Shown: positions 6,590-60,413 of the stretch, one piece after another
Numbering within the stretch: the stretch's first letter is position 1
Layout of the letters: each line of letters begins with the position of its first letter
From: a virus
Lineage: Duplodnaviria > Caudoviricetes
Virus record (IMG/VR): IMGVR_UViG_3300021082_000020
Location: 1 to 64,000 of that record
DNA: 64,000 bases
Reading direction: 5' to 3' (one strand)
Position numbers and translations under genes: made by a program
The notes under the pieces: generated by a model
What the model was told of the DNA's origin: nothing
Seen by the model: the letters and a program-made list of their open reading frames with translations, nothing else
The model's database searches: none

Positions 6590-6617
6590 AACAGCACATG
6601 CTCCGTATCGTTGCAGC

Positions 6618-8634: not shown

Positions 8635-8643
8635 CGCATCCCC

Positions 8644-11600
8644 CTAGATCCGCTTCCAGACGCCGCCATCCTTGACGAAACTGGCGATCGGCAGCGTCCA
8701 GGTGCCGCCGACCTTAACGTAGGTCGTGGTTTCCTTCCACACGCCGCCGGTCTTCACCCAGGTCTTGCCGACCGGCACGCCGACGGCAAAAACCGGCGTG
8801 ATCGGCTGGCCGGCGATCGGCACCACACCGGCCGTCAGGATTTCCTTGCGGGCAAACACATCAGTCAGCGCCAGCCCAACCAGTGGCACGGCAGCCGGAC
8901 TGATTATCTCGGTGTAGTTAATGCCGCCGGCCGAGAAGATCGGCGTGATAGTGAGGCCGCCGATCGGCAACGCGCCAGCCGTCAGCGTGTCGGTGTATTT
9001 CTTGCTGAAGACCGGCGTGACGGTCGAGCCGACGATCGGCACTGCGCTTGGCGCGATCGTGTCGGTGTATTTCTTACTGAACGCCGGCGTGACGGTCTGC
9101 CCAGTGATCGGTACCGCACTCGGCGTGAGCGTGTCGCTGCGGGCGTAGACATCAGCAGCCGCGGCGCCGACGATCGGCACGCTGCTGGGCGCAATCGTAT
9201 CGCTGCGGGCGTAAACATCGGCGACAGCTGCGCCGGCAACCGGCACGGCGGCCGCGGTGATCGTATCAGTGTAATTGATGCCGGTGGTAGCGCCCTCACC
9301 CATCCATGACTTGAAACCGGATGGAACAGGGAAAACTAACGCGGCAAGCTCAGTGCGGATTGTTACTTCTGTAGGACCGATAAAACTGTTTGCCTGTAGG
9401 GCCTGAATACTGTAGCCGCTGGAAGTGATACCGCCGCTGTTGGTTGCCGGATCGTCGGTCGAAACGCCGTTCCAGTAACCGTTATTAAGCCGCAGCCATA
9501 CTTTGTTGTTGAGTGTGTCGGTGGCAACGCAGACCGTGTCTCCATCGACAATTGCAGCTGTGCCAAGTCCGGTCGCGCCGCCAAAGGCGTAGATTGTGCC
9601 GTTCTGGTAGAGAGAAATAGCGAAGCCATAATCATTCGCAATCAATGCGGGCGGCGGCCCCCTGGAAACACCAGCCATGACACCACTGGCCTGGACACAC
9701 AGAAACTCGCCGTAATATTTCTCGTCGTCGGCAACATCATGCAGCGTCGTAGATCGGACACCATCGCCAGCGGTCAGTGTTGCCGTCTTGTCGGCATTTG
9801 ACAGCGTTACGCCTGCGGTCTTGTCGTTGACGTTCCACGCATTGGCAATACTGGTAGCAGCGCCGGCATAGACCGGATTGATCGTTGCGCCGACGATCGG
9901 CAGCGTGCTGGTAGTGATAGTGTCGGTGTAATTGATAGGACCGGCGACATAGACCGGAGTGATCGTTGCGCCGACGATCGGCAGCGCACTAGCAGTGATC
10001 GTGTCGGTATAATTGATACCGGCGGCTGGTGCCGCCGACCGGACTTCGATGATCTCGACAAACGACGGGACGTTGGCGAAGAACGGCGCGTAGCCGGTCT
10101 TGTCGACCAGTGCCGCCTCGGCCACACCGTTCTTGTAGTAAAGCGAGCCGCCCAAGGCCGGTGCAGCGCCGTAGTGGATGTCGACCGTGCCGCCGGGAGG
10201 AAATTGAGCCGAAACAGCGTAGTTCTTGGTGTTGTCCCAGTCATCCGGCAACGGCACCCAGTCGGACAGCACATAGCCGGTAACGCCATCGAACGTCAGC
10301 GTGTCGCTGCCGCCAAACATGAGACGAGCTGGCGTGCCAGCCTTGAAATCATAGGCATCGCCGGATGCCGCCGCCTGATTGATGTAGCAGACAGCCGTCT
10401 GTCCAGCGGCTGTCGTGGGATGGAAGTACAGTCCGACACGCACCTCCGAGCCGGTGCCGGCGCGCAGATTGGCGGCGAGATGCGTGGTGACGAACGTGTA
10501 GTTCTGCCAGCCAGCGTTGATGCTGGACATAGTGTACGCGCCATAAACAGCCTTGATGTTGTCGGGCAAGACAACCCAGTCGCTGTAGGCGACGGCACCG
10601 TTGCTCAGCGTGATGTTGGCAACGCCACTCCACTTTAATTGGACCGGCGTGAATGTCGTGCTGCCAAGGTATGGCGAATTAGGATCGTTGGTGCCGTTCC
10701 AGATGCCGACAGAGGCGGTGGTTATGATGACGGACGAAGCCGACGGCGCTTCCAGGCGAACGCGAACCTCGCGTGTGGCACCAGAGCCTCTGATCTGGAT
10801 CTCGTTGACGAAGGCACTGTAGCCATCGATCTTGGCGCTGCCCTCGTGTGCATGATTGTACTGAGAAACTGGCGGCCCGGTGTAGGCCACCAGCGCCCCA
10901 CTGCCGGGACCGCTGATGGTTCCCTGGCCGGTGGTCAGGCGCAGATCGGATGGCGAACCGAGGTCGGTGACGACAACAAGATGCGTGGCATCCGCCATGC
11001 TGGTGACAGGCACCACAGAGCGCATGGCGTAACCGCCCCAGCCGGCACTATCGCTGGTGGACGCGACTGAGTAGATCGTCGTTTCGGTTAACGACCCGCC
11101 ATAAACTGGCGTGATGCTCGATCCGGTGATCGGCACGCTGCCTGGCGTGATCGTATCGGTATATGCATGTGTTTCATGCAACGGTGTGATCGTTGCGCCG
11201 GCGATCGGCACGCTGCTCGGCGTGATGGTGTCGGTATAAGCGACGAACGGAACGAAGTTGGGCGTGACGATCGCGCCGGCGCTCTCGATGTAAAACACCG
11301 CATCGGCGTTGTTGCTGCCGGATGTGCCAATGATGCTCCACTCGCACATCACCCACAGGTATTCGTTGGTGAGCGTGACGGTGGCGCCGGGCGTCCACGT
11401 CACGGTCGACACGCCGGACGCCGTGGTAGTCAGCGCGGCGGTGGTGGTGCCGGCCACCGACGAACCCATAATGCCAGCTATTCCGGTCGAACCGTCAGCA
11501 GACGCAGACCTGTAAAGTCTGACCCGCATCTGCCCGGTCTGCGACGAGGCGGCAGACACCGCGCGCATGCGAAACGTGAATGTCCAATTGGTATTGGCAA

Positions 11601-11859
11601 ATACGCCGGTAAGCGGCGATTCACTACGGAAGCAACCATTTGCCGAAAACGAAGTCAGCGCATCGCCAGCAGCAAACGTGTTTGATGCACGCTTGGACCC
11701 GGCAATCATCAACGACATGTTGGTGGCGGCCAGCTTGGCCACGGTCCAGCCGGTGGTGGTGATGCCGGTCGCCGGAGCTGTGCCGCCGTCTTGCAGGCTC
11801 AGTGATGTCGATGAGCCACTCGGCGCCGCGTTCTTGAAGTAGAAGGTCTTAGTTGCCAT
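8644..11859 (-). CDS. Large repeat-containing adhesin/receptor-binding protein with SPRY-like domain (copy A only)
   Basis: 1071 aa; 11 YTDTITPxxVPIxGxxITP-type repeats; WNVNDK..VTLSN..KYYGEF..GDTVCVA..KVW segment; triple VKxGGxW C-terminus. Confidence 0.7.
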   Translation of the reverse strand: MATKTFYFKNAAPSGSSTSLSLQDGGTAPATGITTTGWTVAKLAATNMSLMIAGSKRASNTFAAGDALTSFSANGCFRSESPLTGVFANTNWTFTFRMRAVSAASSQTGQMRVRLYRSASADGSTGIAGIMGSSVAGTTTAALTTTASGVSTVTWTPGATVTLTNEYLWVMCEWSIIGTSGSNNADAVFYIESAGAIVTPNFVPFVAYTDTITPSSVPIAGATITPLHETHAYTDTITPGSVPITGSSITPVYGGSLTETTIYSVASTSDSAGWGGYAMRSVVPVTSMADATHLVVVTDLGSPSDLRLTTGQGTISGPGSGALVAYTGPPVSQYNHAHEGSAKIDGYSAFVNEIQIRGSGATREVRVRLEAPSASSVIITTASVGIWNGTNDPNSPYLGSTTFTPVQLKWSGVANITLSNGAVAYSDWVVLPDNIKAVYGAYTMSSINAGWQNYTFVTTHLAANLRAGTGSEVRVGLYFHPTTAAGQTAVCYINQAAASGDAYDFKAGTPARLMFGGSDTLTFDGVTGYVLSDWVPLPDDWDNTKNYAVSAQFPPGGTVDIHYGAAPALGGSLYYKNGVAEAALVDKTGYAPFFANVPSFVEIIEVRSAAPAAGINYTDTITASALPIVGATITPVYVAGPINYTDTITTSTLPIVGATINPVYAGAATSIANAWNVNDKTAGVTLSNADKTATLTAGDGVRSTTLHDVADDEKYYGEFLCVQASGVMAGVSRGPPPALIANDYGFAISLYQNGTIYAFGGATGLGTAAIVDGDTVCVATDTLNNKVWLRLNNGYWNGVSTDDPATNSGGITSSGYSIQALQANSFIGPTEVTIRTELAALVFPVPSGFKSWMGEGATTGINYTDTITAAAVPVAGAAVADVYARSDTIAPSSVPIVGAAAADVYARSDTLTPSAVPITGQTVTPAFSKKYTDTIAPSAVPIVGSTVTPVFSKKYTDTLTAGALPIGGLTITPIFSAGGINYTEIISPAAVPLVGLALTDVFARKEILTAGVVPIAGQPITPVFAVGVPVGKTWVKTGGVWKETTTYVKVGGTWTLPIASFVKDGGVWKRI

Positions 11860-12112
11860 CGCTCACCCACACGAAGGTGTAGGTGCAGCGTGAATACTCC
11901 TGAACATGCTCAGGGCTAGTCGGCCACACGTTGCAGCCGCCGCGGTAGTACGGATGCCCATCGTGTCCATTGCAGTGACCATGCCCCTCGATCGTGCGAT
12001 AGAGCGCGCAGTAGCCTTGCACCGGCGGCGGCCCCAGCTCGCCGTCGAACGGATCTCTGCCGCGGCAGCAGTCGCCGCACTGGCAGCACTCGCCGTTGCG
12101 GACCCAGGTCAT
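11849..12112 (-). CDS. YkgJ-like CxxCxxCC cysteine-cluster protein (copy A only)
   Basis: ECCQCGDCC...C..Y...C...CNVWP...C pattern; overlaps neighbours at both ends. Confidence 0.7.
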   Translation of the reverse strand: MTWVRNGECCQCGDCCRGRDPFDGELGPPPVQGYCALYRTIEGHGHCNGHDGHPYYRGGCNVWPTSPEHVQEYSRCTYTFVWVSDGN

Positions 12113-12345
12113 GGCGGGCGAAACCGCCCCTTCCGGGCCAGGTTCAGCAGCTCTTTAGCCAGCGCCTGCGCCTGATCCGGCGTGAAGTTGACCACCAGCG
12201 AGCCGTTGGTCCGCACTTCGGCGCCGGTAACGCCGATCTTGATGTTGTCCTTGATGCAGCCAAGCACCTGCAGCTGGAGCATGCTGACGGTGTGACCCGC
12301 CAGGATGAACGGCCGCTGCTTCAGATCGGTGACGTAGTCGACCAT
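12109..12345 (-). CDS. Hypothetical protein (copy A only)
   Basis: 78 aa tightly packed in the operon. Confidence 0.55.
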   Translation of the reverse strand: MVDYVTDLKQRPFILAGHTVSMLQLQVLGCIKDNIKIGVTGAEVRTNGSLVVNFTPDQAQALAKELLNLARKGRFRPP

Positions 12346-12346
12346 G

Positions 12347-12796
12347 TCAGTTGATGGTGAATAACGCCCCTTGCGGGATCGTATAAGTGTCGGTGATCGC
12401 CATGGTGATGCCGGAGCCGTGATTAATCCAGCCGATCACCGGATTGAGCGGCGTGGTCGGCGTGTCGTTCCACCAAATCGCATATTGGAACGTCGGAATG
12501 GCGCCGGTCGCGACCCACTGCACCGAGCCGGCCGGACCGGCGCCGGTGTGCGACACGGTGGTGACCTGACCGGAGCGGGTAAACGACATCGTCGTCGCCA
12601 TGCCAACGCCGTCGGCGGCCTGGGTGTAGCCGTTGCCGCCGGCAATCTGCGTCGGCGACACGTTCGACAGCAGAAACGACCCGGTGAGCGATGGCGCGGT
12701 ATTGGTCAACAGCAGCCGGAACTGGTCGCTGTTGAAATCATGCACTTTGTTGGCAATATCCTCACTCAAACAGTCCGGCTCGATGAAGGTGGCCAT
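12347..12796 (-). CDS. Putative virion structural protein (copy A only)
   Basis: AGGAGA RBS; DQFRLLL..GNGY..FQYAIWWND..VIGWI resembles small beta-rich phage proteins found beside fibre genes. Confidence 0.55.
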   Translation of the reverse strand: MATFIEPDCLSEDIANKVHDFNSDQFRLLLTNTAPSLTGSFLLSNVSPTQIAGGNGYTQAADGVGMATTMSFTRSGQVTTVSHTGAGPAGSVQWVATGAIPTFQYAIWWNDTPTTPLNPVIGWINHGSGITMAITDTYTIPQGALFTIN

Positions 12797-12810
12797 TTGC
12801 AGTCTCCTAG

Positions 12811-13677
12811 TTACGGGGCAACTTGATACCAAACATCGCCATCGGCGCCGCCGCTCGGCGGCGAGGTCGAAACTGTCGCCTTGGGCGCCTTGGTGTCGAC
12901 GTAGGCTTTGGTCGGCACCTGGTCGGCGTCAACGATCGCGACCGGATTGGTGAGCTTAACCTTGCCGCTACTGGCGATGCGCAGTCGCTCGATGCCGCCG
13001 GCAGATGCCCCTGTGTAGAATGACAACGCAGTAGGTAGCGAATTGGCACTTGGCGCACTATCGACTATGGCGCCAACGCCAGCACTCTGCGGCCAATCGT
13101 AGACACCATCCACCACTGGCGAAGCTTCGCCGCCAAACCCAAGCCAGCCGATCCAATCATTGAGCTGAAGCGGAACTGAACCGCCGTCGAGTGTGCCACG
13201 CGCACGGTTAAGGATGAAGTTTGCACTGGCATTTGGAGCGTTGTCGTAGCGGTCTAATTCAAACACTCCTCCTGGGCCATAAACGTAAAGCTCCATTCCA
13301 GTGATGTTGTTTACATCGAACGGAATATAGCTTTCGCTAGCGATGTACAGCGGCCCGGTCAGCGTGCCGCCGGTCAGCGGCAGATAGACGCCGGCGCCGG
13401 CTGCCGTGAAGTTCGCCGGGTTGAACCCGGCCGGGCCGTGCGCCGCGGTGCATTTGTAGATGGTGCCGGAATAGACCACATGGTCGCCGGCCGCGTAGAT
13501 GCCGCGGGCATCAAAGTAGCGCACGGCGATCAATGGCAGGGGCAGGCCAACGCTGCCGGCGTTGGCATCGCCGGCGGCAAGCTGGCGATTGGCAGTGTTG
13601 ACCGAAAGCTCGCCCGGCTCGAGCATCGGAAACGGATTGGACGGATTGGCGCTGCGCCTATGGCGGTACTGCTTCAT
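12811..13677 (-). CDS. Short tail fibre/adaptor protein (Mtd-N-like N-terminus), copy A
   Basis: N-terminus paralogous to 7342..8634; YLPLTGGTLTGPL; ends STSPPSGGADGDVWYQV. Confidence 0.75.
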   Translation of the reverse strand: MKQYRHRRSANPSNPFPMLEPGELSVNTANRQLAAGDANAGSVGLPLPLIAVRYFDARGIYAAGDHVVYSGTIYKCTAAHGPAGFNPANFTAAGAGVYLPLTGGTLTGPLYIASESYIPFDVNNITGMELYVYGPGGVFELDRYDNAPNASANFILNRARGTLDGGSVPLQLNDWIGWLGFGGEASPVVDGVYDWPQSAGVGAIVDSAPSANSLPTALSFYTGASAGGIERLRIASSGKVKLTNPVAIVDADQVPTKAYVDTKAPKATVSTSPPSGGADGDVWYQVAP

Positions 13678-13718
13678 TCATGGCTCCCTCCTCAAGTCAG
13701 AGCCTGGTAAAAGTCAGT

Positions 13719-14111
13719 CTAACGTTTGCGACTGCGCGCCGCGCTCTCGGTGAAAGTAAAATCCAGCGTGTTGCTCTTCATGCTGCCGGTGCGAACGCCG
13801 ACCGGACAGGTGGCGGCGACCGCGAATATGCTCGGTTTGACGCCGGTGGTGATTTCGGTGGAACTCCTAAACTTGGTCGGCTCGTCGTGGCCGTTGAAGA
13901 CGATCTTGGTCACTTCGGTGAAATTCTCGCCGCTGACGACCAGCTCCAGGTCACCCTCGCCGCAAACCGCGGTGTCCGGCTCGAGCAGCTCAATGGTCGG
14001 CGGCTTCGCCTCGCTGAAAACGATATTGTCGGCGGCGCCGCCGGTGATGTCGACCTTGCCGGGACCGGACACGGTCAGAACCTGGTGCTCGCCGATGTGA
14101 TGGATCGTCAT
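13719..14111 (-). CDS. IPT/TIG Ig-like domain protein
   Basis: PTIELLEP..LVVSGENF..IVFNG..SNTLDFTF; homologue at 60414..60806. Confidence 0.75.
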   Translation of the reverse strand: MTIHHIGEHQVLTVSGPGKVDITGGAADNIVFSEAKPPTIELLEPDTAVCGEGDLELVVSGENFTEVTKIVFNGHDEPTKFRSSTEITTGVKPSIFAVAATCPVGVRTGSMKSNTLDFTFTESAARSRKR

Positions 14112-14123
14112 TGGGTATCCCTT

Positions 14124-14342
14124 TCAGAATGTGCCGCCGTCGAGCTTATCCCATATCCCGTTAGTGCGAACATACGCTTCACCGTCGAGCGGCGCCTCGG
14201 CTATTCCGCCGGCACTGCTGGCGGCGAACTGCGAAGCGATGCGCTTGTTGGCGGTCGGCGCCGCGGTAGTCTGAATGGCATTGCCGATCGCCGCCGGGTC
14301 GACGTTGGGTACCCAAAGCGCAACTCGCAGATTTTGGCTCAT
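14124..14342 (-). CDS. Small protein ending in a fibritin foldon-like motif
   Basis: GIAEAPLDGEAYVRTNGIW versus T4 foldon [20 protein letters not shown]. Confidence 0.75.
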   Translation of the reverse strand: MSQNLRVALWVPNVDPAAIGNAIQTTAAPTANKRIASQFAASSAGGIAEAPLDGEAYVRTNGIWDKLDGGTF

Positions 14343-15751
14343 GGCGGTAGCACCACAGGAATATGCGGCCGGAACCAGACTGCCCAGAACCTGGAATCGG
14401 CCGGCGGCGCCACGGTCATCGCCAGGGTCGCGTCAATGCCGGTGAAATCAACGCCGGGCTCCTGCACAACACCATCCAGACTGACGATCAGCTGCGCGCT
14501 GTTGCCGATCGTGGTCGCGACCGCCGGCGGGCCGACGGTCGGATCGATGTAGCTCAGAGTGAAGATCTTGGTGGTGCCATCTGGTGTGAGCGGCTGCACT
14601 TTGAAGGCGTCGACCTTGGCGGAATTGATTTGGTCGGGCGGGATCATCAAATCCCACTGCACCACGGCGCCGGCGCCAGGCGCCTCGACCATGGTCATGC
14701 TATCGGCCGTCGGGTTGGTGGTGTAGTCGACGGTCGGCACCAGCCGCACGCCGTTCAAGTAAACGTCATGCCCCTCATTGGTAAAAAGCGGCGCGCGACC
14801 GCTGCTATCCATGCCGGAGAAGGTGACCTGGCCGGCGGTCGCGACGTAGACGTAACGCGCACGGAAACCTGGCGCGACGGTGATGCCGGGCTCCTGCCAG
14901 GAGGTGCCGTTCCAGATCATGATCGAGTTTTTTGCGGTGTCGTAGTAGAAACTGCCGACCGCTAACGGATCCGGCACGGTTTCGCCGGTGTTGGGGTTGG
15001 TTTCGCCAGGAACCGGCGGCACCGACCACGGCCCGAGGTAGTAAAAACCGATATTGCCGACCAATTGCTGGCAATAAATGGCCCACCACTTGGCCGACCA
15101 CAAACCACCGACGCCACCCATGCCGGAAACCGGCTGGTAGAACAGTCCTTGCGGAAATGCCGAGGCATTTATGAAATCCAGCGCGTGGCTGTTATCGACA
15201 ACAGGTCCGGCTAGATACTCTGCCCATTGAAGCGCCTCATCTTTGGCGGCAATGGCGTTGTCGGACTGCGCATGTGAGTAATTTGCCGAATTTTCCGAGG
15301 CAATCGCCGCGGATTCGGCCCGATCGGCGGAATTTTCCGCGTCAGAGGCGGAATCCAGCGCGTTGACGTTGCCGTGACTGATCGCGCTGAGCATTTGCGC
15401 CGCGCTGACGGCCGCCGCTTCAGCATCGGTGGCGCGCAAATCGGTCTCGCGACCGCTTTTGATGACAATCTGGATGGCGTCGGCGGCTTTTTCCGCTGCA
15501 GCGGCAATGCGGCGCTCGGTTTCGTCGATTTCGGCGCGATCGAGCTTCCATTCCGGCGTCAGTTGCTCCTGGCCGACGCTGTTATTGACCAGTTTGCCGT
15601 CGTCGCGGCGAATATCCGCAAGTGCTTGCTGGGTGGACTGGATTGCTTCGACTAGATTGTGGATCTGCGCGTCGAGCAGGTCGGCCTGGATCTGGCCGCG
15701 CGGGCGGTCGGAGAATAAAATCTTCTGCTGCGGCCGCACGATCGCTGGCAT
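14339..15751 (-). CDS. Tail fibre anchor/proximal protein, copy A
   Basis: LDAQI..IRRDDGKL.NNSV N-terminus, Ala-rich coil, then VYLNGV..DY and VSLDGV.Q..DF small beta domains. Confidence 0.7.
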   Translation of the reverse strand: MPAIVRPQQKILFSDRPRGQIQADLLDAQIHNLVEAIQSTQQALADIRRDDGKLVNNSVGQEQLTPEWKLDRAEIDETERRIAAAAEKAADAIQIVIKSGRETDLRATDAEAAAVSAAQMLSAISHGNVNALDSASDAENSADRAESAAIASENSANYSHAQSDNAIAAKDEALQWAEYLAGPVVDNSHALDFINASAFPQGLFYQPVSGMGGVGGLWSAKWWAIYCQQLVGNIGFYYLGPWSVPPVPGETNPNTGETVPDPLAVGSFYYDTAKNSIMIWNGTSWQEPGITVAPGFRARYVYVATAGQVTFSGMDSSGRAPLFTNEGHDVYLNGVRLVPTVDYTTNPTADSMTMVEAPGAGAVVQWDLMIPPDQINSAKVDAFKVQPLTPDGTTKIFTLSYIDPTVGPPAVATTIGNSAQLIVSLDGVVQEPGVDFTGIDATLAMTVAPPADSRFWAVWFRPHIPVVLPP

Positions 15752-27226: not shown

Positions 27227-27651
27227 TGGTCGCCTCAACCAAAGTCCGGCCGCTGCCACCGGGGGTACGCACGCGGCTCGATAAGATGCTGTTGCTGCTT
27301 GGTTCCGACAATGACGGCGAGCGGGCGGCGGCGTCCGGCATGATCACCAACCTGCTGCGCGAGCACGGCCTGGACTGGCATGACATCGTCGGCTCGATCG
27401 GCCAGCCTGCGGCGGCGGCGGCGCCAAAGCCGCCGCCACGCAACCCAGTGCCGATGCCTGTCGGTCATGAAATAACTGCGGATGAACTCAAGCGGTTGGT
27501 GCATTTGATTTTACGTAGTCCTCTCAATAAGCGGGCGCGGGAGTTCCTGGCCGGCATGATGGACCGTGCCAACATCTACGACCTGGTTTTTTTATCCGAC
27601 AAGCAATGGATTTGGCTGCGTGACTTAGCGCGGCGAGCGGGGGCGATATGA
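27226..27651 (+). CDS. Hypothetical protein
   Basis: LLGSDNDGERAAA..LLREHGLDW motif; stop-start overlaps. Confidence 0.65.
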   Translation: MVASTKVRPLPPGVRTRLDKMLLLLGSDNDGERAAASGMITNLLREHGLDWHDIVGSIGQPAAAAAPKPPPRNPVPMPVGHEITADELKRLVHLILRSPLNKRAREFLAGMMDRANIYDLVFLSDKQWIWLRDLARRAGAI

Positions 27652-28379
27652 AGCATGTCATAGCACTATCTGGCGGCAAGGATTCCACCGCTATGGCGCT
27701 GCGGCTGAAGGAGCTGCACCCGCACACCGACTACACCTACGTCTGCACGCCGACCGGCGACGAGCTGCCGGAGATGTTCGAGCACTGGCGATCGCTCGGC
27801 GATCGCCTCGGCAAGAAGATTCTGCCGGTTATGCACAGCACTGGGCTTAAAGGTGTGATCCGCAAAGAGCAGATGCTGCCGAATTTCCGCGCCAGGTTCT
27901 GTACGCGGATCCTAAAGATCGAGCCGTACCGGCGCTGGCTGCAAGCTAACACGCCGTGCGTATCCTACGTCGGGCTCCGTGCCGACGAAGCGGGCCGGGC
28001 CGGCGGCGCCTACGCCGACATTGCCGGCGTCGAGATGCGCTTTCCTCTGCGCGAGTGGGGCTGGACCGAGCGGCATGTGTGGACGTACCTGGCTGATAAC
28101 CAGGTACAGATCCCGCCGCGTACCGACTGTGCGCGTTGTTACCACCAGCGGATTGGCGAGTGGTGGCAGCTGTGGAAGGAATTTCCCGAGCTGTGGGCCG
28201 ATGCCGAGGCCGATGAAGAGGAACTCAAGGCCACCTACCGCACGCCCGGCCGCGATACCTGGCCGACCGCATTGAAGGATCTACGCGCCGTATTCGAAGG
28301 CGGCCGGTTGCCACGCACGGTGAAGGACACTGCTGATGGCCTACGTAACGTCGGCGCCTGCCGGGTGTGTACGCTATGA
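27648..28379 (+). CDS. PAPS reductase-family (PP-loop, Fe-S) protein
   Basis: SGGKDS PP-loop, RFCT..LK..P, GLRADE, CARC, C-terminal CRVC. Confidence 0.9.
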   Translation: MKHVIALSGGKDSTAMALRLKELHPHTDYTYVCTPTGDELPEMFEHWRSLGDRLGKKILPVMHSTGLKGVIRKEQMLPNFRARFCTRILKIEPYRRWLQANTPCVSYVGLRADEAGRAGGAYADIAGVEMRFPLREWGWTERHVWTYLADNQVQIPPRTDCARCYHQRIGEWWQLWKEFPELWADAEADEEELKATYRTPGRDTWPTALKDLRAVFEGGRLPRTVKDTADGLRNVGACRVCTL

Positions 28380-30514: not shown

Positions 30515-31070
30515 CGCGGTGCATCCACTTCAGTTCTGGACGGCCGGTCCATTTGTGGTCGAACACCAACCAGCAATAGTCCGACTTGCCGCCGCCCACC
30601 TTGCCGCCCGAGGTGATGACATGGCCGGGCGGCATCGACGGCCGCGGGGTCAGCAGCCACACGCTTTGTAGTGGTTTGTTATCTAGCCAGCGGGCGGCAT
30701 TGAGCCGGGCGGTTGGCATGATCAGCGCCACCTTGTTGCGGGCGCGATCCAGCGCGTGCTTGGTAAACTCCTGGAACCTGTCGAACGGCGGGTTGCTGAC
30801 GATATTGTTGGGCGTGGTGATGTGGTTTTGAAAAAAGTCCTGCACATCGCCGCGGCCGCGACGATCGATCATGTCGGCGCCGTGTGCCAGGTAGCCGGCC
30901 TTGATCGCGGAATCGATAATGCGGCCGAAGCCGCAGGCGGGATCGTAGATGTCACCGACAAAGTGCTCTTCTTCGAACAGCCGCTCGCTGACCCAGAACG
31001 GCTCGACGTAGTGCTCGTCGACGCGGGGATAGGCTTTGGCGCCGGCGGTGTGGGTCCACGGCTGGCTCAT
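30504..31070 (-). CDS. Compact DNA N6-adenine methyltransferase
   Basis: Motif I DPACGFG before motif IV NPPF; GAGGA RBS before ATG at 31070. Confidence 0.85.
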   Translation of the reverse strand: MSQPWTHTAGAKAYPRVDEHYVEPFWVSERLFEEEHFVGDIYDPACGFGRIIDSAIKAGYLAHGADMIDRRGRGDVQDFFQNHITTPNNIVSNPPFDRFQEFTKHALDRARNKVALIMPTARLNAARWLDNKPLQSVWLLTPRPSMPPGHVITSGGKVGGGKSDYCWLVFDHKWTGRPELKWMHRDVP

Positions 31071-31279
31071 CGCACGTCCTCGTTCCACTTCCACTTACCC
31101 TTGACCCAGTGGCCGTTGACCGGATCCTCACACTCGACGGCGCGGACTTCGCGTGCCGAGGTCCAACGTTGTTCCAGGTCACGGGCGTAAGCCATTGCTT
31201 CGGCTTCGGTTTCGCAGCGCACCGCGTTGTCGTACCACTTCGGGTCGTTGTGGACGCGCACCTCCGGTTTCCAGGCCAT
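31067..31279 (-). CDS. Hypothetical protein
   Basis: Trp-rich 70 aa, coupled to neighbours. Confidence 0.6.
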   Translation of the reverse strand: MAWKPEVRVHNDPKWYDNAVRCETEAEAMAYARDLEQRWTSAREVRAVECEDPVNGHWVKGKWKWNEDVR

Positions 31280-31575
31280 CAGGCGCTCCCCTGGACGTCG
31301 TCCAGCAGTGCTGCCGCGTTGCGCGTCATCTCTTCGTCCACGTCCTTGAACATCTGGTTCATCACTGCGGACAGCTCGGCCATACCGATCTTGGCCGCCT
31401 GGTCGATGCTCATGAACGACTGCGCGGCGCCCATGAAGTAAGCTGACCGCATGGCGCTGATCTGGTCTTCACCGGATCCGGCTTCGCGCAGGCTGCCGGC
31501 GAACGCGGTCCATCCCGCTTTCAACGTTAGGTCCGGGTCCAGTTCACCTTTGATAACTTTGAAGATTTCAGCCAT
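31279..31575 (-). CDS. Hypothetical protein
   Basis: GW..Q..MR.AY.MGA motif, coupled. Confidence 0.6.
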   Translation of the reverse strand: MAEIFKVIKGELDPDLTLKAGWTAFAGSLREAGSGEDQISAMRSAYFMGAAQSFMSIDQAAKIGMAELSAVMNQMFKDVDEEMTRNAAALLDDVQGSA

Positions 31576-31960
31576 CGGCTTTCTCCAGCTGTTTGGCGCC
31601 GAGATCGGCGGCTAGCTCGTTCAATGCCGCGGTGGTTGGCGTCGGCGCCCGGTCCAGCTCGTTGACACTGGCGACAAAATCCTCGGCCCGGCGTGTCAGC
31701 AATCCGATATTAGCCATTTGCGTGGTCAGTTCGATCAGCATCTTATGTAGCCGCAGCGATTCGTGGCGGTAGCGATCGCGTTCTTCGACCATCATCTGCA
31801 CCCGGTCATGCTCGCGGTTTAAATCAATACGCATCTGGCTGATGGTGTTCTGGGCGTTGATCAGGTCTTCGTGCATCTGCGTGACCTTGGCCAGCGCAGC
31901 CACGCGGTGGTCGTTCTCGACGTCGGGCAGCGGACGTGTCTGTTGCCGAGGTGCGTTCAT
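31568..31960 (-). CDS. Coiled-coil hypothetical protein
   Basis: AAGG RBS before ATG at 31960; heptad pattern. Confidence 0.6.
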   Translation of the reverse strand: MNAPRQQTRPLPDVENDHRVAALAKVTQMHEDLINAQNTISQMRIDLNREHDRVQMMVEERDRYRHESLRLHKMLIELTTQMANIGLLTRRAEDFVASVNELDRAPTPTTAALNELAADLGAKQLEKADG

Positions 31961-32030
31961 GGTTTTCGCCTTTCTGTTGTGAAGCTGCTGCGCCGGGTAG
32001 ATCACCCGGCGCAGCATGACCGCGGACGCA

Positions 32031-32261
32031 TTACCTTTTCGCAGCCTTTTTCGGAGCTGTTCGCATAGGCCATAGATGGTCAGGTGCATCGTGGCCGATC
32101 TCTTTCAGTTCATCTTTGAGTAGCCGGTAAGTGTCTGCTGGGAATTGCTTTCCCGCTCGCCAGTTGTAGACGCCGTTCTCCGAAGTTCCGGTTAGCTCGG
32201 CCATCGCCTCGATGCCGCCGAGCGCGTCGATGATTTCAGATGTCGTTCGTAAGGTCGTCAT
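32031..32261 (-). CDS. Cro-like HTH regulator
   Basis: IIDALGG..MAELTG....VYNWR...FP; first gene after a divergent promoter. Confidence 0.8.
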   Translation of the reverse strand: MTTLRTTSEIIDALGGIEAMAELTGTSENGVYNWRAGKQFPADTYRLLKDELKEIGHDAPDHLWPMRTAPKKAAKR

Positions 32262-32267
32262 ATGGAA

Positions 32268-32332
32268 TCAGTCCTATCTCAACATTTTTGAGGGTGCAAG
32301 CTTGTATCTCAAAATAGTTGAATTATAGTCGG
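32268..32332. promoter_or_regulatory. Divergent promoter pair with two operator-like palindromes
   Basis: Operators CTCAAcatttTTGAG (32278-32292) and cTCAAaatagTTGAa (32308-32322); rightward TTGTAT-N16-TATAGT; leftward TTGCAC-N17-TAGGAC. Confidence 0.65.
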
Positions 32333-32337
32333 GTACA

Positions 32338-32532
32338 ATGGCCGACCCGGAAACCCAGCTGCGCGAGCTGATGATGGAGGATGCGAAGGTCTATCGCATC
32401 CGCAATCAGATCGCGGAGAAGACCGATCCGCAGGCCAATAAAAATAAAGCGTACAGGTCGAAGGCGAAGGCTAAGAAGGCTGTTAATGTTGAACCTGTCG
32501 ACGAACACCCAACAGAGGAACCACCCCAATGA
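32338..32532 (+). CDS. Small hypothetical protein, probably leaderless
   Basis: ATG 8 nt after the -10 box; ATGA overlap with next gene. Confidence 0.5.
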   Translation: MADPETQLRELMMEDAKVYRIRNQIAEKTDPQANKNKAYRSKAKAKKAVNVEPVDEHPTEEPPQ

Positions 32533-33314
32533 ATAAATTGCTTGGCACCGCGTTCGCGGTGTCTCTCGCTACATTTGCACTGGCGCTGCCGGCGCAGGCT
32601 GCCACCCGTATCCTCGGCGGCCAGACTTGGACGATCGGCGGCACTGACCTGACACTCGGCGGCGTCCCGGCCGGCAATCAACCGCAGAACGCGCCCTGCG
32701 TCATCTGCGGCGCGAACCAACCAAACCAAACCAACGTCGACCAGAATTTTGGTTATACGGACTATGGCAACCAGGGGAATTTAACCTCTGAGACTTACTT
32801 TTCGTCCGGTATTCTCAGGGACACGGTGCTTGGTGCCGATACCATCTCGGCGGTCAACTACAGCGGCACACAGTTGATCAACCTGATCACTGCGTTGGGT
32901 GGCCAGCAGACGTTCAGCATCGGCATCGATCTGAACCAGGCTAGTGGGCAGGGGCCGCAGACGCTGGAGAGCTTCTTCTTCCTCGACCTGACCAGCAAGA
33001 CGGTCCTGGCGTCGTTCCTGCCGGACATTAATGACGGCATTGCGCTCAATAGCATCAACAATGGCACGGGCTTTCCCGACTACCTATTAAACGGCCTGAC
33101 CACTGCCGGGTTGGATCCCAACCATCAGTATGCGTTCTTTGCCCGCATGACCAACATCAATGACGGCCCTGACAGCTTCTTCATTGTGCCGGGTACTCAG
33201 GTGGCGGCGGTGCCGCTGCCGGCGGTCGGCGCCGGACTGCCCGCCCTGATCGCGGGGATGTTTGGCTTGGTTGGGCTGCATCGCCGTCGGAAGCAGCGGT
33301 TGTTGTCGGCTTGA
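32529..33314 (+). CDS. Secreted VPLPA-CTERM (PEP-CTERM class) surface protein
   Basis: Signal peptide ending AQA; C-terminal VPLPA + TM helix + RRRKQR. Confidence 0.85.
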   Translation: MNKLLGTAFAVSLATFALALPAQAATRILGGQTWTIGGTDLTLGGVPAGNQPQNAPCVICGANQPNQTNVDQNFGYTDYGNQGNLTSETYFSSGILRDTVLGADTISAVNYSGTQLINLITALGGQQTFSIGIDLNQASGQGPQTLESFFFLDLTSKTVLASFLPDINDGIALNSINNGTGFPDYLLNGLTTAGLDPNHQYAFFARMTNINDGPDSFFIVPGTQVAAVPLPAVGAGLPALIAGMFGLVGLHRRRKQRLLSA

Positions 33315-33323
33315 CCTTGCTGG

Positions 33324-33356
33324 CTCCGGCGGCGTGCATGTGAAGCGTCGCCGGGG
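33324..33356. terminator. Hairpin downstream of VPLPA-CTERM gene
   Basis: ctccggcggcg...cgtcgccgggg (with G-U pairs), followed by A/T tracts. Confidence 0.35.
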
Positions 33357-33398
33357 TCGAGCTTCAAAAATGCAAAAAAATTTTGGGCGGTCTAAACG

Positions 33399-33554
33399 AT
33401 GCTGTGGGTTTTGCTAATAGGATCGGTCTGGGCGATCACCGGCTACCCGAGCAAAGAGGCGTGCCTCGAGGCATCGCGGACATCCAACTTCAGCTACGTC
33501 ACATGGTGCGTGCCGATGCAGAGCACCGGCACAGTGGTGTCTGGTCACCGTTAA
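33399..33554 (+). CDS. Possible 51-aa peptide with two Cys (not in ORF track)
   Basis: Hand translation MLWVLLIGSVWAITGYPSKEACLEA...WCVP; stop abuts the stop of the convergent gene. Confidence 0.45.
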   Translation: MLWVLLIGSVWAITGYPSKEACLEASRTSNFSYVTWCVPMQSTGTVVSGHR

Positions 33555-36500
33555 TTACCAACCGCCAGTACTGCCCATCGGCATCGAGAATCCGCCACCA
33601 CCCATATCGAAGCCACCGCCGCCACCCCAGTCGAGGCCGGCGCCGATGTTGCCGCCACCCCAACCCCAGCCACCGAGAACCTGCGGTGAGATCGGTGACA
33701 ACCCGCCGACCATGCCGCCGGACGCGGCTGTCTGATTGAGCAACGGACTCGAGTAGGTGCTGTTCTCAATGGGCGGCAGCACACCCGCCAAGGCTATGCT
33801 GCCGCCCTGGCTGCCGGGCGCGCCCGGTGCCACCGCGCCGGTCGGGATCGAACTTAATCCCGGCGGCGCAAGAGACAGCCCGCCGGCGGTACCACCGGCG
33901 GGCGTGGCGGGCTGCGCCGGAAGCACCGGCTGGGCATCAGCCGGTGGTGGGCTCGGATCCGGCGCAACCCGGCTTCCTTCATCGTTGTAGACATCGGTCA
34001 GGGCTTGGGCGATCTCCGGCGTCATCACCAGTTGCGGAGTTTGCGACGGTTCTGCGTAGCGCGCGTTCTTGCCGGTTGGCACACCCGGATCGGCGTCGAT
34101 GTTGGTGTGTTGTTTAATGTCGTAGAAACCGGCGTCGTTAGCGAGGGCGTCTGTCCGGCCAAGCTTAGAACGATTTTGTCCGCCTTTTCTCTTGTATGGA
34201 TCGCCCATATACGGATCGGATTCGGATTCAACATACATTCTGCGGTCATGAATGTTTGTCGACTCTGGCATCCGCGATGTGTCGATCGGTTTGAACGATC
34301 CGAGATGCTCGATAAATCCTGTGTTCTCTCGGTTGATGTATTCGGCCATTGCAGGATCGACATCAGGCAATGCGACAGCGCCACCTGAAGACGAGAAGTT
34401 CTGCGCCGGCAGTTCTGGCGCGTCGACCGCGGCGGTTGCGCCAGGTTTCTGGTCAGCAGCCGGTGTAACCTCCTCAGTGACGGCCGCTCCGGCGGCCGCC
34501 GCGGTCGGCTCTGGTGCCAGCCGCTTGCTGGCGCTGAAGTCGGTGGCACCCGAGGTGCCGAGGTCGAGGTCGCTGCGCTTGCCGACTGCCGCCGGCTTCG
34601 GCGCGCCCTCCTTCACCGCGGCGTCAAACTGCTGCTGGGTGATGCCCATCTTCGGCAGGTAGGGTTGCACGCCGGCGGCGATCTGGCTGCCGATGAACGG
34701 CGTGTTCATTGCCTCACGCAAGGTCTTGTTGCCGATGAAGTCCGGCACTTGACTGACCTTGCTCGGATCCCCCCGCTTGACCAGCTCGATCACCTTGGTG
34801 TCGAGCAGCGCGTGTGCCGGGTTGACCGCGGGAGCGGCTGGCGGCGCCGGCTTGGCGACCGGCGGCGGCGCAGGGGGCGCGGCTGCCGGAGGTTTGACCG
34901 GCGCCGCTGCTGCCGCAGCCGGGGTAGTAGGGGTAGGCACTACGGCCGCGGGAGGTGGAGCTTGGGCTGCTGGTGTCGCTGCCGGTTCTTCCGGCAGCAA
35001 TGTTTCCGGTTCGGTCGCCGCGATTGCGGCAGCACCCGGCGGCGCACTTGGCGTGGGTGCCGCCGCCGGAGCCGCAGCCGGCGCAGGCTTCGCTTCAGCT
35101 TGCGGGGGCTGGGCGGGAGCCTGTGCCGGAGCTGTTTTTGGTGTCGCTGCTGGATCCTGTTTGCCGCCCCAGTCCTGGGCCGCGGTCGTTCCGGCGTTTG
35201 GATTCTTGTAATAGTTCGGATTGTCGAACGCCTGCGCTTCCTGGCCGCGGCGAATGGTCAGGCCGTGCAACGGCTTCTTGGCGCCGGATGCGTCGGTGAC
35301 CTTGTCGTACTGGACGAAGATCTCTTTAGCCTGCTTCCAGTCGCCGGCCTTCACCGCGGCAGCCAGGCCGGTGTTGTTCAAGGCGGCGCCGCCGGTGTTG
35401 AAGCCGAGCGAGGCGAGCGAGTTGCGGATCGCCGGCGGGGTGTTGGGGTTGAGCGCATCGATCGTTGCCAGGTGCCGGCTCAGTTCGGCGTTCATCTCAG
35501 CCCTGGCGGTCGGCTCGTCGATGCTGGTGCGGCCCTTGGCGGCGGTGCCGTAGCCGATGTTGGTGGTGCCATAGTCGGCGAACGACTTCGGCGTGAAGTT
35601 CTCCTTCTTGGCCACCCACTCGGTCAGCTCCGGCGGCACGCCAGCGGCGTGCGGGCCTGTCGCGGATGTAGCGGATGTAGCGGATGCCGGGTTGGAGAAC
35701 GATTGCCCTTTATAGCCAGGATTGATCTGGACGTGCGGCGCGTCACCCTTGACCGGGAAGTGGACGCCAAACTTGTCCTGGTTGCCGGCGTTCAACCACT
35801 GCCGGAACGGGCTGTCGGGCAGGTCGCCGGCGCTACCCTTCTGGTGCTGCGAGTGGCCGGCCTTGGCGGCGATGCCGCCGGTGCCGGCCTCGTACTTGTC
35901 GCGGTAGATCTGCTGCACGTCGGCGCCGCGGGAGAACTCGCCGTACTGCGCCCGCTTGCCGGGGTTCTCCTTCTCGAACGCCTCGCCAGCGGCACGCAGC
36001 CGGGCGGCCAGTTCGGGATCAATCCCCTGGTAGCTGCCGGCCGCGGTCAGCGGCGCGTCGACGATCTTGCCGTCCTTCAACACACTGTGGTGACCGCCAC
36101 GCTCCTGTAAGAACTTGAGATCGGCTTGGTAGGTCGGGCCTTCGGCCGATCGCTCGACCGGCGCCCTGAGCCTGGCGCGGTTGGCGCCCGGCCCAGGCGG
36201 CCGCTCCGGCATGGCCGGCGGTGTCGGCGGCTTCACCTGCTGCTGTGCCTGCAGCTTCTGCTGCAGGGCCTTGTCCTTGGCGGCGCCGAAGCCGCCCGAG
36301 ATCGTTTCACCGATGCTATCGTCACTCTGCATCGGCCGCTGCAGCGACGAGGTGACCTGGCCGACCAGCGGCTGCACCTGCAGCGGCTTGGTTTCGTCGA
36401 CGTGGATGTCTTTCGCGCTCGGCCCCTTGAGTATGCGCTCGAGGAATTGGGTCATCTGGCTGGGCTGTGTGCCGGGTGGCACCACACCCAGGTTGACGCC

Positions 36501-36611
36501 GAGCGCGTGCAGCGCACGCGAAGTATCATCGCCGAGCAGCGGCTGCTTGCCGGCGATCATCGTCTGCTTGCTCTTCTCGCGCTCGAGCGCCTGTTCGTCC
36601 ATGTAGGCCAT
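33555..36611 (-). CDS. Ejection/internal virion protein with M15 peptidase and GH24 lysozyme domains
   Basis: R..Q..Y..GHSQH..G.AGD..PHVQ (M15); E.F..D..T.IGYG..SL.FN.G..GL..RR..E (GH24); Pro/Ala linkers. Confidence 0.85.
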   Translation of the reverse strand: MAYMDEQALEREKSKQTMIAGKQPLLGDDTSRALHALGVNLGVVPPGTQPSQMTQFLERILKGPSAKDIHVDETKPLQVQPLVGQVTSSLQRPMQSDDSIGETISGGFGAAKDKALQQKLQAQQQVKPPTPPAMPERPPGPGANRARLRAPVERSAEGPTYQADLKFLQERGGHHSVLKDGKIVDAPLTAAGSYQGIDPELAARLRAAGEAFEKENPGKRAQYGEFSRGADVQQIYRDKYEAGTGGIAAKAGHSQHQKGSAGDLPDSPFRQWLNAGNQDKFGVHFPVKGDAPHVQINPGYKGQSFSNPASATSATSATGPHAAGVPPELTEWVAKKENFTPKSFADYGTTNIGYGTAAKGRTSIDEPTARAEMNAELSRHLATIDALNPNTPPAIRNSLASLGFNTGGAALNNTGLAAAVKAGDWKQAKEIFVQYDKVTDASGAKKPLHGLTIRRGQEAQAFDNPNYYKNPNAGTTAAQDWGGKQDPAATPKTAPAQAPAQPPQAEAKPAPAAAPAAAPTPSAPPGAAAIAATEPETLLPEEPAATPAAQAPPPAAVVPTPTTPAAAAAAPVKPPAAAPPAPPPVAKPAPPAAPAVNPAHALLDTKVIELVKRGDPSKVSQVPDFIGNKTLREAMNTPFIGSQIAAGVQPYLPKMGITQQQFDAAVKEGAPKPAAVGKRSDLDLGTSGATDFSASKRLAPEPTAAAAGAAVTEEVTPAADQKPGATAAVDAPELPAQNFSSSGGAVALPDVDPAMAEYINRENTGFIEHLGSFKPIDTSRMPESTNIHDRRMYVESESDPYMGDPYKRKGGQNRSKLGRTDALANDAGFYDIKQHTNIDADPGVPTGKNARYAEPSQTPQLVMTPEIAQALTDVYNDEGSRVAPDPSPPPADAQPVLPAQPATPAGGTAGGLSLAPPGLSSIPTGAVAPGAPGSQGGSIALAGVLPPIENSTYSSPLLNQTAASGGMVGGLSPISPQVLGGWGWGGGNIGAGLDWGGGGGFDMGGGGFSMPMGSTGGW

Positions 36612-42505: not shown

Positions 42506-42877
42506 CTATCTGGTTGTGCTGATGCTGCCAGGCGTGGTCGCCGGCCGCTGCGATTGATTTGCCCAAATCGACGGCGGTGGCAGCAGCGACCCAGCCAGGA
42601 GAGCGCCGGTGGATTGCGGCGGGCCGCCGCCAGGTTGCAGCTTGCTGACGATCGGACCGCCGGCCGGGATTGCCGGGCCGAGCGGCTCGACTGGCGCCGC
42701 GGCCGCGGGAGCGGCCGGTGCCACTGGCGGCGCCACCGGCGCCGGTGGCGGTGCCATCTGCGCCGGCGCCATCGGCAGGTTCAGTGGTGGCGGCGCCGCC
42801 GGTGCCGGTTCCGGTTCCGCTGCCCAGCCCGGTTCGGATCCCCAATGATAACCGCCGCCTATGTCGTTCCAAGGCAT
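42506..42877 (-). CDS. Pro-rich paralogue of 42028..42498
   Basis: Shares PLGPAI.AG.PI and TGALLAGSLLPPPSIW motifs. Confidence 0.7.
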   Translation of the reverse strand: MPWNDIGGGYHWGSEPGWAAEPEPAPAAPPPLNLPMAPAQMAPPPAPVAPPVAPAAPAAAAPVEPLGPAIPAGGPIVSKLQPGGGPPQSTGALLAGSLLPPPSIWANQSQRPATTPGSISTTR

Positions 42878-43395
42878 CAGAGCACCACCGTGAAAATCAT
42901 GCCGACCGGCTCGCCACCGAAGTGCCGACCGATCATGTTCATCAGTGAGTTCTGCTCCGGCATACCGGAGCAGATTGGGAAGTTGATCACCTTGCAGCCG
43001 TCGCGGCGGGCCAAGGTGATGACCATGTCGACCAAGCGGCGGCCGAGGTCGGTGCGCTGGTACTTCGGGATGGTGTAGGTCTCGTCCATCACGCCCATCG
43101 GCTCGGAGAACACATCGAACACATGGTAGCTGCAGACGCCGACCAGCTTGTTGTTGTCCAGCGTATCGAGCGCGATGACGTACATGGCGAACTGGGTGCC
43201 GACCGCGTTCGCTAAGTAGCGTTCGGATTTCTCCCGGTGATACTTCAGGTGCTTGGCCCAGCCGGACAGCTCGAAGAACTCGCCGAGGAAGTCGGCAAGC
43301 ATCGGAGCGTCGGCCGATTCCGCCATGCGGACGTTAATGTGCGGGGTACGCACCGTCCGCTTTGGTTTTGGTAGTTTGATAACCGGAATATTCAT
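42877..43395 (-). CDS. GNAT acetyltransferase
   Basis: VRMA..D; acetyl-CoA motif YTIPKYQRTDLGRRLV; AGGTGG RBS. Confidence 0.85.
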   Translation of the reverse strand: MNIPVIKLPKPKRTVRTPHINVRMAESADAPMLADFLGEFFELSGWAKHLKYHREKSERYLANAVGTQFAMYVIALDTLDNNKLVGVCSYHVFDVFSEPMGVMDETYTIPKYQRTDLGRRLVDMVITLARRDGCKVINFPICSGMPEQNSLMNMIGRHFGGEPVGMIFTVVL

Positions 43396-43852
43396 CAGCC
43401 AGCCACCTGTACGAAATGAAGTCCTCACCCTCGATGCCATAGCCGGACAGCACGCCTTCGGCCCTGGCGCCAATTAAACTCATGAATCTGCGGACATCAT
43501 CCCGGTGGCGTAGTGCCACCGCATCAACGCGGTGTATTCCGAGGTCGACCAACATCGGTAGAACGAAACCACGGATCTGCCGCATCATTGGTAACACGGC
43601 GCGACCCCAGTCGTCAGTGCCGAAGGCGAAGCCGGCAGCCACACCCTGGCGTTTCAGCACCGCGCCCCAGACTGAGATCGGGCCGCGGTCGAGGCTCCAG
43701 GCGCAATACACAAACAGCTTGTGCCGCATGATCAACCCTGGCAGCCGCTCCATGTCGGTGCCAGCCGCGGTCATCTCGGCTACGTCTTCCTCGCGCATGT
43801 GCTGCAGCACATGCCGGATTATGCCGACGTCGGCCTGCGCGATCTCGATCAT
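43334..43852 (-). CDS. GNAT-like virion assembly protein (T7 gp13-like)
   Basis: MREED.AE..A, FGTD.W, RF..LIGA..EG...YG..GEDF; follows nozzle gene by ATGA overlap. Confidence 0.7.
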   Translation of the reverse strand: MIEIAQADVGIIRHVLQHMREEDVAEMTAAGTDMERLPGLIMRHKLFVYCAWSLDRGPISVWGAVLKRQGVAAGFAFGTDDWGRAVLPMMRQIRGFVLPMLVDLGIHRVDAVALRHRDDVRRFMSLIGARAEGVLSGYGIEGEDFISYRWLADEYSGYQTTKTKADGAYPAH

Positions 43853-54632: not shown

Positions 54633-54845
54633 TCATTTCATCCTTTCGACGATCGGCTGGCAAGACTTGGCCAATTCGGCGATCAGCGCATCACGCCGCT
54701 CCGATGCCGACGAGATGTGATAGAGCGTGAAGAACACCACGCCGAGGCAAACGATATTGATGATTACCAGCGGCAGTGCCAGCGGTCCCGCAGCCGCCAA
54801 TCCCTTGGCGATCTCGCTCGCGGCCTTGCCGGTATACTCGATCAC
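54633..54845 (-). CDS. Single-TM membrane protein, copy B
   Basis: Homologue of 6618..6830. Confidence 0.55.
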   Translation of the reverse strand: MIEYTGKAASEIAKGLAAAGPLALPLVIINIVCLGVVFFTLYHISSASERRDALIAELAKSCQPIVERMK

Positions 54846-55342: not shown

Positions 55343-55344
55343 GG

Positions 55345-56637: not shown

Positions 56638-56639
56638 GC

Positions 56640-60367: not shown

Positions 60368-60413
60368 TCATGACCCCCTCCTCAAGTCAGGGCCTGGTAA
60401 AACCTGGCAGTTT

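Follow-up and report, generated by a model that had tools for sequence, protein, structure and literature searches.

The window analysed here is the whole stretch of 64,000 nucleotides from positions 1 to 64,000 of a Caudoviricetes virus record (IMG/VR IMGVR_UViG_3300021082_000020), and our subject is the gene at 32529..33314 on its plus strand, which encodes a 261-amino-acid protein with a signal peptide, a predicted beta-sandwich domain (hereafter the passenger) and a C-terminal tail opening with VPLPA. A preliminary description had read this protein as a phage-encoded substrate of a host exosortase, of the VPLPA-CTERM type, in a phage without an exosortase of its own. The phage origin and the missing enzyme both hold. 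The gene sits amid phage genes of a 94,958-base virus record, the window carrying a family A DNA polymerase, an SNF2 helicase, a PD-(D/E)XK exonuclease, a methyltransferase, a terminase, a portal and a capsid gene, and neither an exosortase (PF09721) nor exopolysaccharide genes were found in the whole record. The record consists of two head-to-tail units of ~47-48 kb, roughly 80% identical overall and 74-88% block by block; we call the one that does not hold this gene the sister unit. The gene is built of three modules, its homologues lie overwhelmingly on viral DNA, and passenger and tail have been exchanged independently of each other. Its parts are as follows.

32529..33314, plus strand: gene for a 261-amino-acid protein, signal peptide, beta-sandwich passenger and C-terminal sorting or anchor tail (ATG start, homologues, AlphaFold)
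32529..32600, plus strand: signal peptide, residues 1-24, cut after AQA (read from the sequence and the near-invariance of A22 and A24)
32601..33197, plus strand: passenger cassette, residues 25-223, predicted beta-sandwich, replaced by an unrelated passenger in the sister unit (model, alignment)
32697..32708, plus strand: CVIC (C57-x-x-C60), within the conserved block NQPxNxPC[VI]ICGANQPxQ (invariant columns)
33198..33311, plus strand: tail module QVAAVPLPA-VGAGLPALIAGMFGLVGL-HRRRKQRLLSA (sequence)
33210-33224, 33225-33278 and 33279-33299, plus strand: motif, hydrophobic stretch and basic cluster of the tail (sequence)

The signal peptide, as read from the letters (MNKLLGTAFAVSLATFALALPAQA then A), has MNK, a hydrophobic core and A22-Q23-A24, with the predicted cut before A25, and both alanines, A22 and A24, hardly vary across 120 homologues. 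In the same homologues C57, I59, C60, G61, Q64, P65 and Q67 are invariant, which makes the CVIC block the most conserved of the family. Of the residues of the mature passenger, 13% are Gly, 11% Thr and 9.5% Asn, and the tail runs from V228-P-L-P-A232 through a hydrophobic stretch of 18 residues (233-250) to H251-RRRKQR. AlphaFold2, given 120 sequences, predicts an all-beta domain at ~26-221 and a helix at 236-260 with a predicted local distance difference test score of 87.6 and a predicted TM-score of 0.78. The features named in the preliminary description, a signal peptide, an Asn/Thr/Gly-containing domain with CVIC and a VPLPA-transmembrane-RRRK tail, are thus all present in sequence, alignment and model. 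With 507 homologues at E ≤ 1e-3, 32 invariant columns across 120 aligned homologues and a confident model, the gene is not a chance open reading frame (ORF). A thioester-like reading of C60-G-A-N-Q64 and a CxxC disulfide were set aside, and no claim is made for either.

At the same place in the sister unit lies a gene for 228 amino acids with the same signal peptide and tail and an unrelated passenger. The two proteins are identical at 35 of their 47 final residues (74%), and the DNA alignment of the units breaks right after ...LPAQA (~32599) and resumes at QVAAVPLPA. The sister passenger has a family of its own, with 247 homologues that use the same palette of tails, and its model is a beta-sandwich for which carbohydrate-binding modules are the closest structures (Z up to 8.1; Z ≥ 5 for 144 chains). 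Three members of that family bear the Joint Genome Institute name 'opacity protein-like surface antigen', to which the fold gives no support. In five loci, representing three distinct cases (L002/L004/L024, L044 and L076), a second, unrelated tailed gene lies beside a homologue of the window gene.

L002, 9221-9757: second tailed gene
L044, 6784-7413: second tailed gene
L076, 9511-9996: second tailed gene

In all five loci the tail of the second gene is of the same class as the homologue's or of a neighbouring one, and one of the second genes is similar along its whole length to the cellular FxDxF PEP-CTERM family (39.9 bits, cut-off 50). Judged by these sequences, the tail class goes with the phage and not with the passenger. 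Additional tailed ORFs in L021 and L073 were rejected as wrong-frame artefacts over the gene itself. Contigs of three other public sequencing runs cover the gene wholly or mostly without any difference (X6 32508-33695, X18 32562-33299, X23 32693-33778), and other run contigs on 31500-34500 part from the window at 32531, 32551, 33181 and 33191. Past those breakpoints, and over short matched parts, they carry other signal-peptide, passenger or tail variants (FAVPGPAVGA, LTPGVQAAVP), a hint that such gene variants co-occur.

The converse exchange, of tails under one passenger, is seen within the window's own family. Tails were classified for 184 of 201 sequences, 17 without core motifs being dropped, and fall into the classes VPGPxxGAG (109), VPLPAVGxG, which is the window's (26), PEP or PEPxxWA (22), VPLPA-W (14), other VPLPA (10) and other (3). 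A quick maximum-likelihood tree was built from 161 distinct passengers, and on it the tail class must have changed 35 times or more, a count that errors in the tree would inflate; 300 shuffles averaged 57.1 changes and never gave fewer than 51. Tail class is therefore partly inherited and often replaced. Without recourse to a tree, tail classes differ in 134 of the 440 passenger pairs that are 80-90% identical.

The exchanged tails include ones that curated models recognize. The VPLPA-CTERM model of NCBIfam, TIGR03370, has a cut-off of 25.35 bits; the passenger closest to the window's (P0002, 94% identical) carries a tail that reaches 32.4 bits, and P0014 (30.9), L044 (32.6) and L079 (33.3) also pass. 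In the VPLPA-W class, 5 of 8 proteins pass TIGR03370 and 2 more pass TIGR02595, and in the PEP class a cut-off is passed by 6 of 18 (for example L049 with 28.5 and L012 with 24.5 bits), with PEPxxWA-CTERM listed for all 18. The curated models confirm that several tail classes are real sorting signals. The wider relatives of the passenger point the same way. A passenger-only profile found 294 proteins at E ≤ 1e-3 among 1.84 billion representatives, and since the best 150 of the 294 are all of 320 amino acids or fewer, no fused forms were seen. The more distant relatives end in ordinary PEP-CTERM-type tails: 30 of the 53 that were scanned pass a curated cut-off (23 PEP-CTERM, 6 more VPLPA-CTERM and 1 VPDSG-CTERM). 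Only one homologue turned up in a cellular genome (G244); it ends in a VPLPA-type tail, and the genome also encodes an exosortase and has six TIGR03370 matches. The passenger fold thus keeps company with exosortase-type tails, and the comparisons support the view that the tail behaves as an exchangeable address label of the PEP-CTERM class.

The family is almost confined to viral DNA. The 120 homologues listed are all unnamed or 'hypothetical protein', many of them on 40-47 kb contigs, and the top Atlas clusters are 97-100% Viruses. A pattern scan of IMG/VR gave 218 matches, 190 of which were confirmed as relatives in viral contigs, and the same scan of one genome each of 185,579 species gave 79 matches with none confirmed, which bears out the expectation that homologues of the passenger would be mostly phage-borne. 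The passenger profile found a distant homologue in 1 of 401 sampled Alphaproteobacteria genomes. Neither the whole window protein nor its passenger has a match in Pfam, NCBIfam or PHROGs, and tblastn of the protein against 50,697 phage records gave none. Within the viruses the gene moves between genomes. Among 80 fetched loci the backbone of the window phage is common only to L021 and L023, and in the 70 loci analysed for neighbours (10 were dropped because the ORF caller had missed the gene) the commonest neighbouring family occurs in only 10. The contexts vary, the gene lying right after an integrase in 3 of 20 loci (L030, L045, L051) or among RecT, methyltransferase and polymerase genes. 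The nearest isolates are Microcystis phage Mae-Yong1326-1 (capsid 52%, terminase 49%) and Rhizobium phage RHph_N65, at 40-52% capsid and terminase identity overall, with more distant relatives for the DNA polymerase. The overall layout of Mae-Yong1326-1 matches that of the window phage, and no tailed ORF was found in it. With a passenger replaced in the sister unit, no constant neighbour in 70 loci and no tailed ORF in the nearest isolate, the gene has the profile of a moron, or accessory gene.

Around the gene, the locus is arranged as follows.

32031..32261, minus strand: divergent neighbour, a 76-amino-acid helix-turn-helix protein, weakly Cro/YdaS-like (all matches below Pfam cut-offs)
32262..32337, no strand: divergent intergenic region between the Cro-like helix-turn-helix gene (minus) and the 64-amino-acid ORF (plus), holding TCTCAAAATAGTTGA
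32338..32532, plus strand: upstream ORF of 64 amino acids, no family found, kept in the same backbone (L003, L021, L023)
33315..33398, plus strand: conserved 3' region with a 17-pair GC-rich hairpin right after the stop, near-identical in the sister unit
33399..33554, plus strand: downstream ORF of 51 amino acids with a hydrophobic N-terminus and two Cys, no family, accompanying the locus in L021 and the sister unit
33555..36611, minus strand: convergent neighbour that closes the structural operon, a 1018-amino-acid protein with a phage-lysozyme domain in its middle (domain scan)

The rightward unit accordingly runs from the 64-amino-acid ORF through the gene and the hairpin to the 51-amino-acid ORF, diverging from the helix-turn-helix gene and converging on the structural operon. 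The stop codon of the 64-amino-acid ORF and the start codon of the gene overlap in ATGA, and the two are therefore probably transcribed together. A promoter scan of the intergenic region found no plus-strand promoter and one weak minus-strand site; a promoter-like TTGTAT-16-TATAGT was seen by eye only. The 15-base block TCTCAAAATAGTTGA (32308-32322) is the same in both units with differing flanks and may be an operator or promoter element. The hairpin has a folding energy of -35.5 kcal/mol (z -3.1, none of 200 shuffles as good), with no U-run directly behind it, and the stretch 33315-33554, which comprises the hairpin, an A-rich spacer and the 51-amino-acid ORF, is among the best conserved between the two units. 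The 1018-amino-acid protein has its lysozyme domain at about residues 336-484, long Pro/Ala-rich stretches and a Gly-rich C-terminus, and is probably an ejected or internal virion protein.

Elsewhere in the record, no tyrosine or serine integrase (PF00589, PF00239) was matched, which gives no support to lysogenic conversion by the window phage. The record starts and ends at nearly the same phase, within ~350 bases (window 1-64000 plus 48317-94958), and its two units look like either two relatives that occurred together and were fused in assembly or a genuine tandem. They differ most after the terminase (5679-15751 versus 54842-63330), presumably in tail fibres, with Flg_new_2 and a sub-threshold CBM_5_12 on one side and three Laminin_G_3 and a TIG domain on the other. 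A PAPS-reductase-like gene at 27648-28379 lies within the replication module, between DNA polymerase and helicase, and may serve DNA modification rather than sulfur metabolism; a GNAT acetyltransferase at 42877-43473 belongs to the structural operon, with an N-acetyltransferase at the matching place in the related Microcystis phage. DNA near-identical to nearly all of 31000-36000 (78-99% of sampled words) occurs in 24 runs, which belong to 20 studies dated 2017-2025 and sample soil, freshwater sediment, rhizosphere and groundwater; five of the entries may stem from the source sample, and no RNA datasets are listed among these runs. This spread is unusually wide for one phage sequence, and a widespread host or a common contaminant organism is possible.

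We propose that the gene is a phage accessory gene of the moron type, with three independent modules and a product that the host sorts into the cell envelope, a proposal to which we give about even credence. The mechanism with the best support is sorting by an exosortase-type enzyme of the host, and we put its chances, too, at around a half. In the course of events that we infer, the protein would be exported by Sec and its signal peptide cut after AQA, and the tail would then hold it in the inner membrane with VPLPA facing the periplasm. An exosortase-type enzyme supplied by the host, not by the phage, would recognize the tail, remove it and pass the passenger to the cell surface or the exopolysaccharide layer. 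There the lectin-like domain could bind polysaccharide and alter the surface of the infected cell, possibly covering the phage's own receptor or holding exopolysaccharide on the cell, as the flocculation-associated PEP-CTERM protein PepA does. Such a surface role is suggested by the generic folds, which resemble carbohydrate-binding modules, and by the PepA precedent. Besides receptor masking, the preliminary description had considered competition for the exosortase or altered aggregation, which would be further possible roles. Processing by host exosortases is established for PEP-CTERM tails; for the tail variant of the window it is not established.

Among the 401 sampled Alphaproteobacteria, 38 genomes have TIGR03370 matches and 67 have PF09721. 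An exosortase is present in 33 of the 38 TIGR03370-positive genomes versus 34 of the 363 others (including the unpublished G440; Fisher p 2e-24, with shared ancestry ignored), although TIGR03370 can cross-match ordinary PEP-CTERM tails, and one complete, strongly TIGR03370-positive genome (G457) has no exosortase match. In these cells VPLPA-CTERM matches and exosortases thus tend to occur together, in favour of the proposal. Several points, the caveats on this count among them, weigh against the proposed sorting. The scan for VPLPA-CTERM that the preliminary description had called for missed the cut-off although the motif is literally VPLPA: scanned alone, the window tail scores 9.0, 10.0 and 9.5 bits on TIGR03370, and the whole protein gives no match. 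The PEP motif is absent, and neither TIGR02595 nor PF07589 matches the protein at E ≤ 10. No whole protein of the window's class passes TIGR03370 (0 of 14, best 24.2 bits), and of its tails scanned alone one does (L053, 26.9 bits). In the VPGPxxGAGLPGL class, none of 19 whole proteins matches any curated model and no separately scanned tail reaches a cut-off. Cells offer few counterparts. AVPLPAVG[STA]G gave 7 confirmed stretches in the 185,579 species genomes, with no true tail among the 2 inspected, one being spurious and the other an ordinary PEP-CTERM-like tail. With the VPGP tail profile, weak matches numbered 9 among 201 Rhizobiales genomes, 4 among 401 Alphaproteobacteria and none among 191 Pseudomonadota, figures that cover ~790 genomes of one phylum with only 19-40 candidates scored per genome. 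The two clear cellular look-alikes of that class (G210, G580) stand in genomes with no PF09721 match. As for the fold, Foldseek of the passenger models against PDB and BFVD gave nothing at E ≤ 0.001. With VIA the window passenger was nearest to carbohydrate-binding modules and reached a best Z of 6.6 (root-mean-square deviation 3.6, 116 aligned); CBM32, CBM35 and CBM6 scored Z 4-5, values that common arrangements also give. With Z under 8 these matches are generic, so glycan binding is only a suggestion. The proposed sorting also predicts an exosortase in the host of the phage. As an observation on the cellular tails, L091 (G179) and L097 (G210) are small Pro/Gly-rich cellular proteins, one per genome, that end in PGP[IV]AGAGLP, a helix and RRR.

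Some of these points would also fit a tail that is never cleaved. As a plain C-terminal membrane anchor it would tether a periplasmic beta-sandwich to the inner membrane, where it would block incoming phages, for example by acting on the lysozyme-bearing ejection protein of related ones, in the manner of the inner-membrane superinfection-exclusion proteins of other phages. The failure of the curated model, the lack of a cellular counterpart of the exact motif and the look-alikes of the related class in genomes without PF09721 are what an anchor would lead one to expect, and the 1018-amino-acid lysozyme-domain protein is the convergent neighbour; the record also has no integrase, which would place the action of the gene during infection, when exclusion pays. 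However, an anchor does not need AVP-x-P, yet P229 is invariant and A227, V228 and P231 are almost so, nor does it need a class-specific membrane sequence common to two unrelated passenger families. Near-identical passengers whose tails pass VPLPA-CTERM, PEP-CTERM or PEPxxWA models, together with the curated sorting tails on 30 of the 53 scanned members of the wider superfamily, also speak for sorting, and we regard the anchor as rather unlikely. That the protein is instead a virion or lysis component, not cargo, is highly improbable: the gene does adjoin the end of the structural operon and is followed by a small hydrophobic ORF, but it lies on the strand opposite to the structural genes, matches no PHROG family, occurs in many unrelated phage backbones with no conserved neighbour, gives way to an unrelated passenger in the sister unit and has no tailed counterpart in the nearest isolated phage. 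To our knowledge, virion proteins do not combine a signal peptide with a C-terminal membrane tail.

It is also conceivable, and in our judgement unlikely, that the VPLPAVGxG and VPGPxxGAGLPGL tails form a separate, uncurated signal for which the host has an enzyme outside the known exosortases. Together these tails account for 135 of the 184 classified in the window family and 85 of 120 in the sister family, the VPGP class has no NCBIfam match at all, its membrane stretch GAGLPGLIAAC..L is kept far beyond simple hydrophobicity, and similar cellular tails exist, rare and single-copy (L091, L097). The window's class, however, begins with a literal VPLPA and, with TIGR03370 scores of up to 26.9 (tail alone) and 24.2 bits (whole protein), grades into the curated exosortase-type signal. 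No candidate enzyme was found, and the cellular sample, ~790 genomes of one phylum, had limited sensitivity. In a broader reading, which we hold to be possible though doubtful, phages would trade an exported-cargo kit of signal peptide, passenger and tail and swap its host-specific tail to match the sorting enzyme of the host, with VP[GL]PxxGAGxPGL-helix-RRRR, the dominant label, which takes in the window's class and its sister class, as an uncurated, nearly phage-only signal read by a possibly non-exosortase enzyme.

If host sorting of this cargo is real, it would be an unstudied route by which phages in soil and sediment remodel the host surface, with adsorption, exclusion and flocculation affected. 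The natural series of tail swaps provides material for matching enzyme to signal, and the survey draws attention to a common tail class without a curated model. Should that class be a phage-specific, uncurated label, tail class could help to mark the host range of phages that have not been cultivated, and a sorting pathway not yet described would be indicated.

Among known systems, envelope-altering phage morons such as the receptor-blocking lipoprotein Llp of phage T5 and the Cor proteins resemble the gene in that they are phage-encoded, exported, non-structural and placed in the envelope by host machinery, with a presence that varies among related phages. They differ in using the lipoprotein pathway or plain membrane insertion, with no C-terminal sorting tail. 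The pairing of one passenger domain with several C-terminal sorting signals is known from Haft's 'choice-of-anchor' families in NCBIfam, and one model of that name is among the curated-model matches of the scanned tails; the window passenger differs in having no NCBIfam or Pfam match and in being exchanged among phages. PEP-CTERM-type sorting signals are known from bacteria, where they are linked with exopolysaccharide and with aggregation. With VPLPA-CTERM proteins (TIGR03370) the window protein shares VPLPA, a membrane helix, a basic cluster at the extreme C-terminus and an N-terminal signal peptide, whereas its membrane stretch is VGAGLPALIAG rather than of the WLFGSG type, and it is phage-encoded. 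In the exosortase (EpsH, Xrt) and PEP-CTERM model of Haft et al. 2006 (PMC1569441), the likeness lies in the three-part tail logic with a signal peptide, in the small single-domain clients that are typical, and in family members and distant relatives with true PEP-CTERM and PEPxxWA tails; the difference lies in the missing PEP motif of the window protein and in a record without exosortase and exopolysaccharide genes. PepA (NF033554) is, like the window protein, a small secreted protein with a sorting tail, and the Aquincola study (PMC9850573) reports that its overexpression lowers soluble and raises bound exopolysaccharide. PepA differs in being chromosomal and RpoN-dependent. Four homologues are weakly similar to NF033554 over much of their length (P0002 17.3, P0003 20.7, P0027 18.3 and P0102 17.7 bits, cut-off 80), and the window protein itself has no match to that model. 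A limited full-text literature search found no paper on phage-encoded PEP-CTERM-type proteins. What goes beyond these systems is that two large families (507 and 247 homologues) lie almost only on phage DNA and exchange passengers and tails independently, which suggests that phages routinely send their own proteins through the surface-sorting pathways of their hosts.

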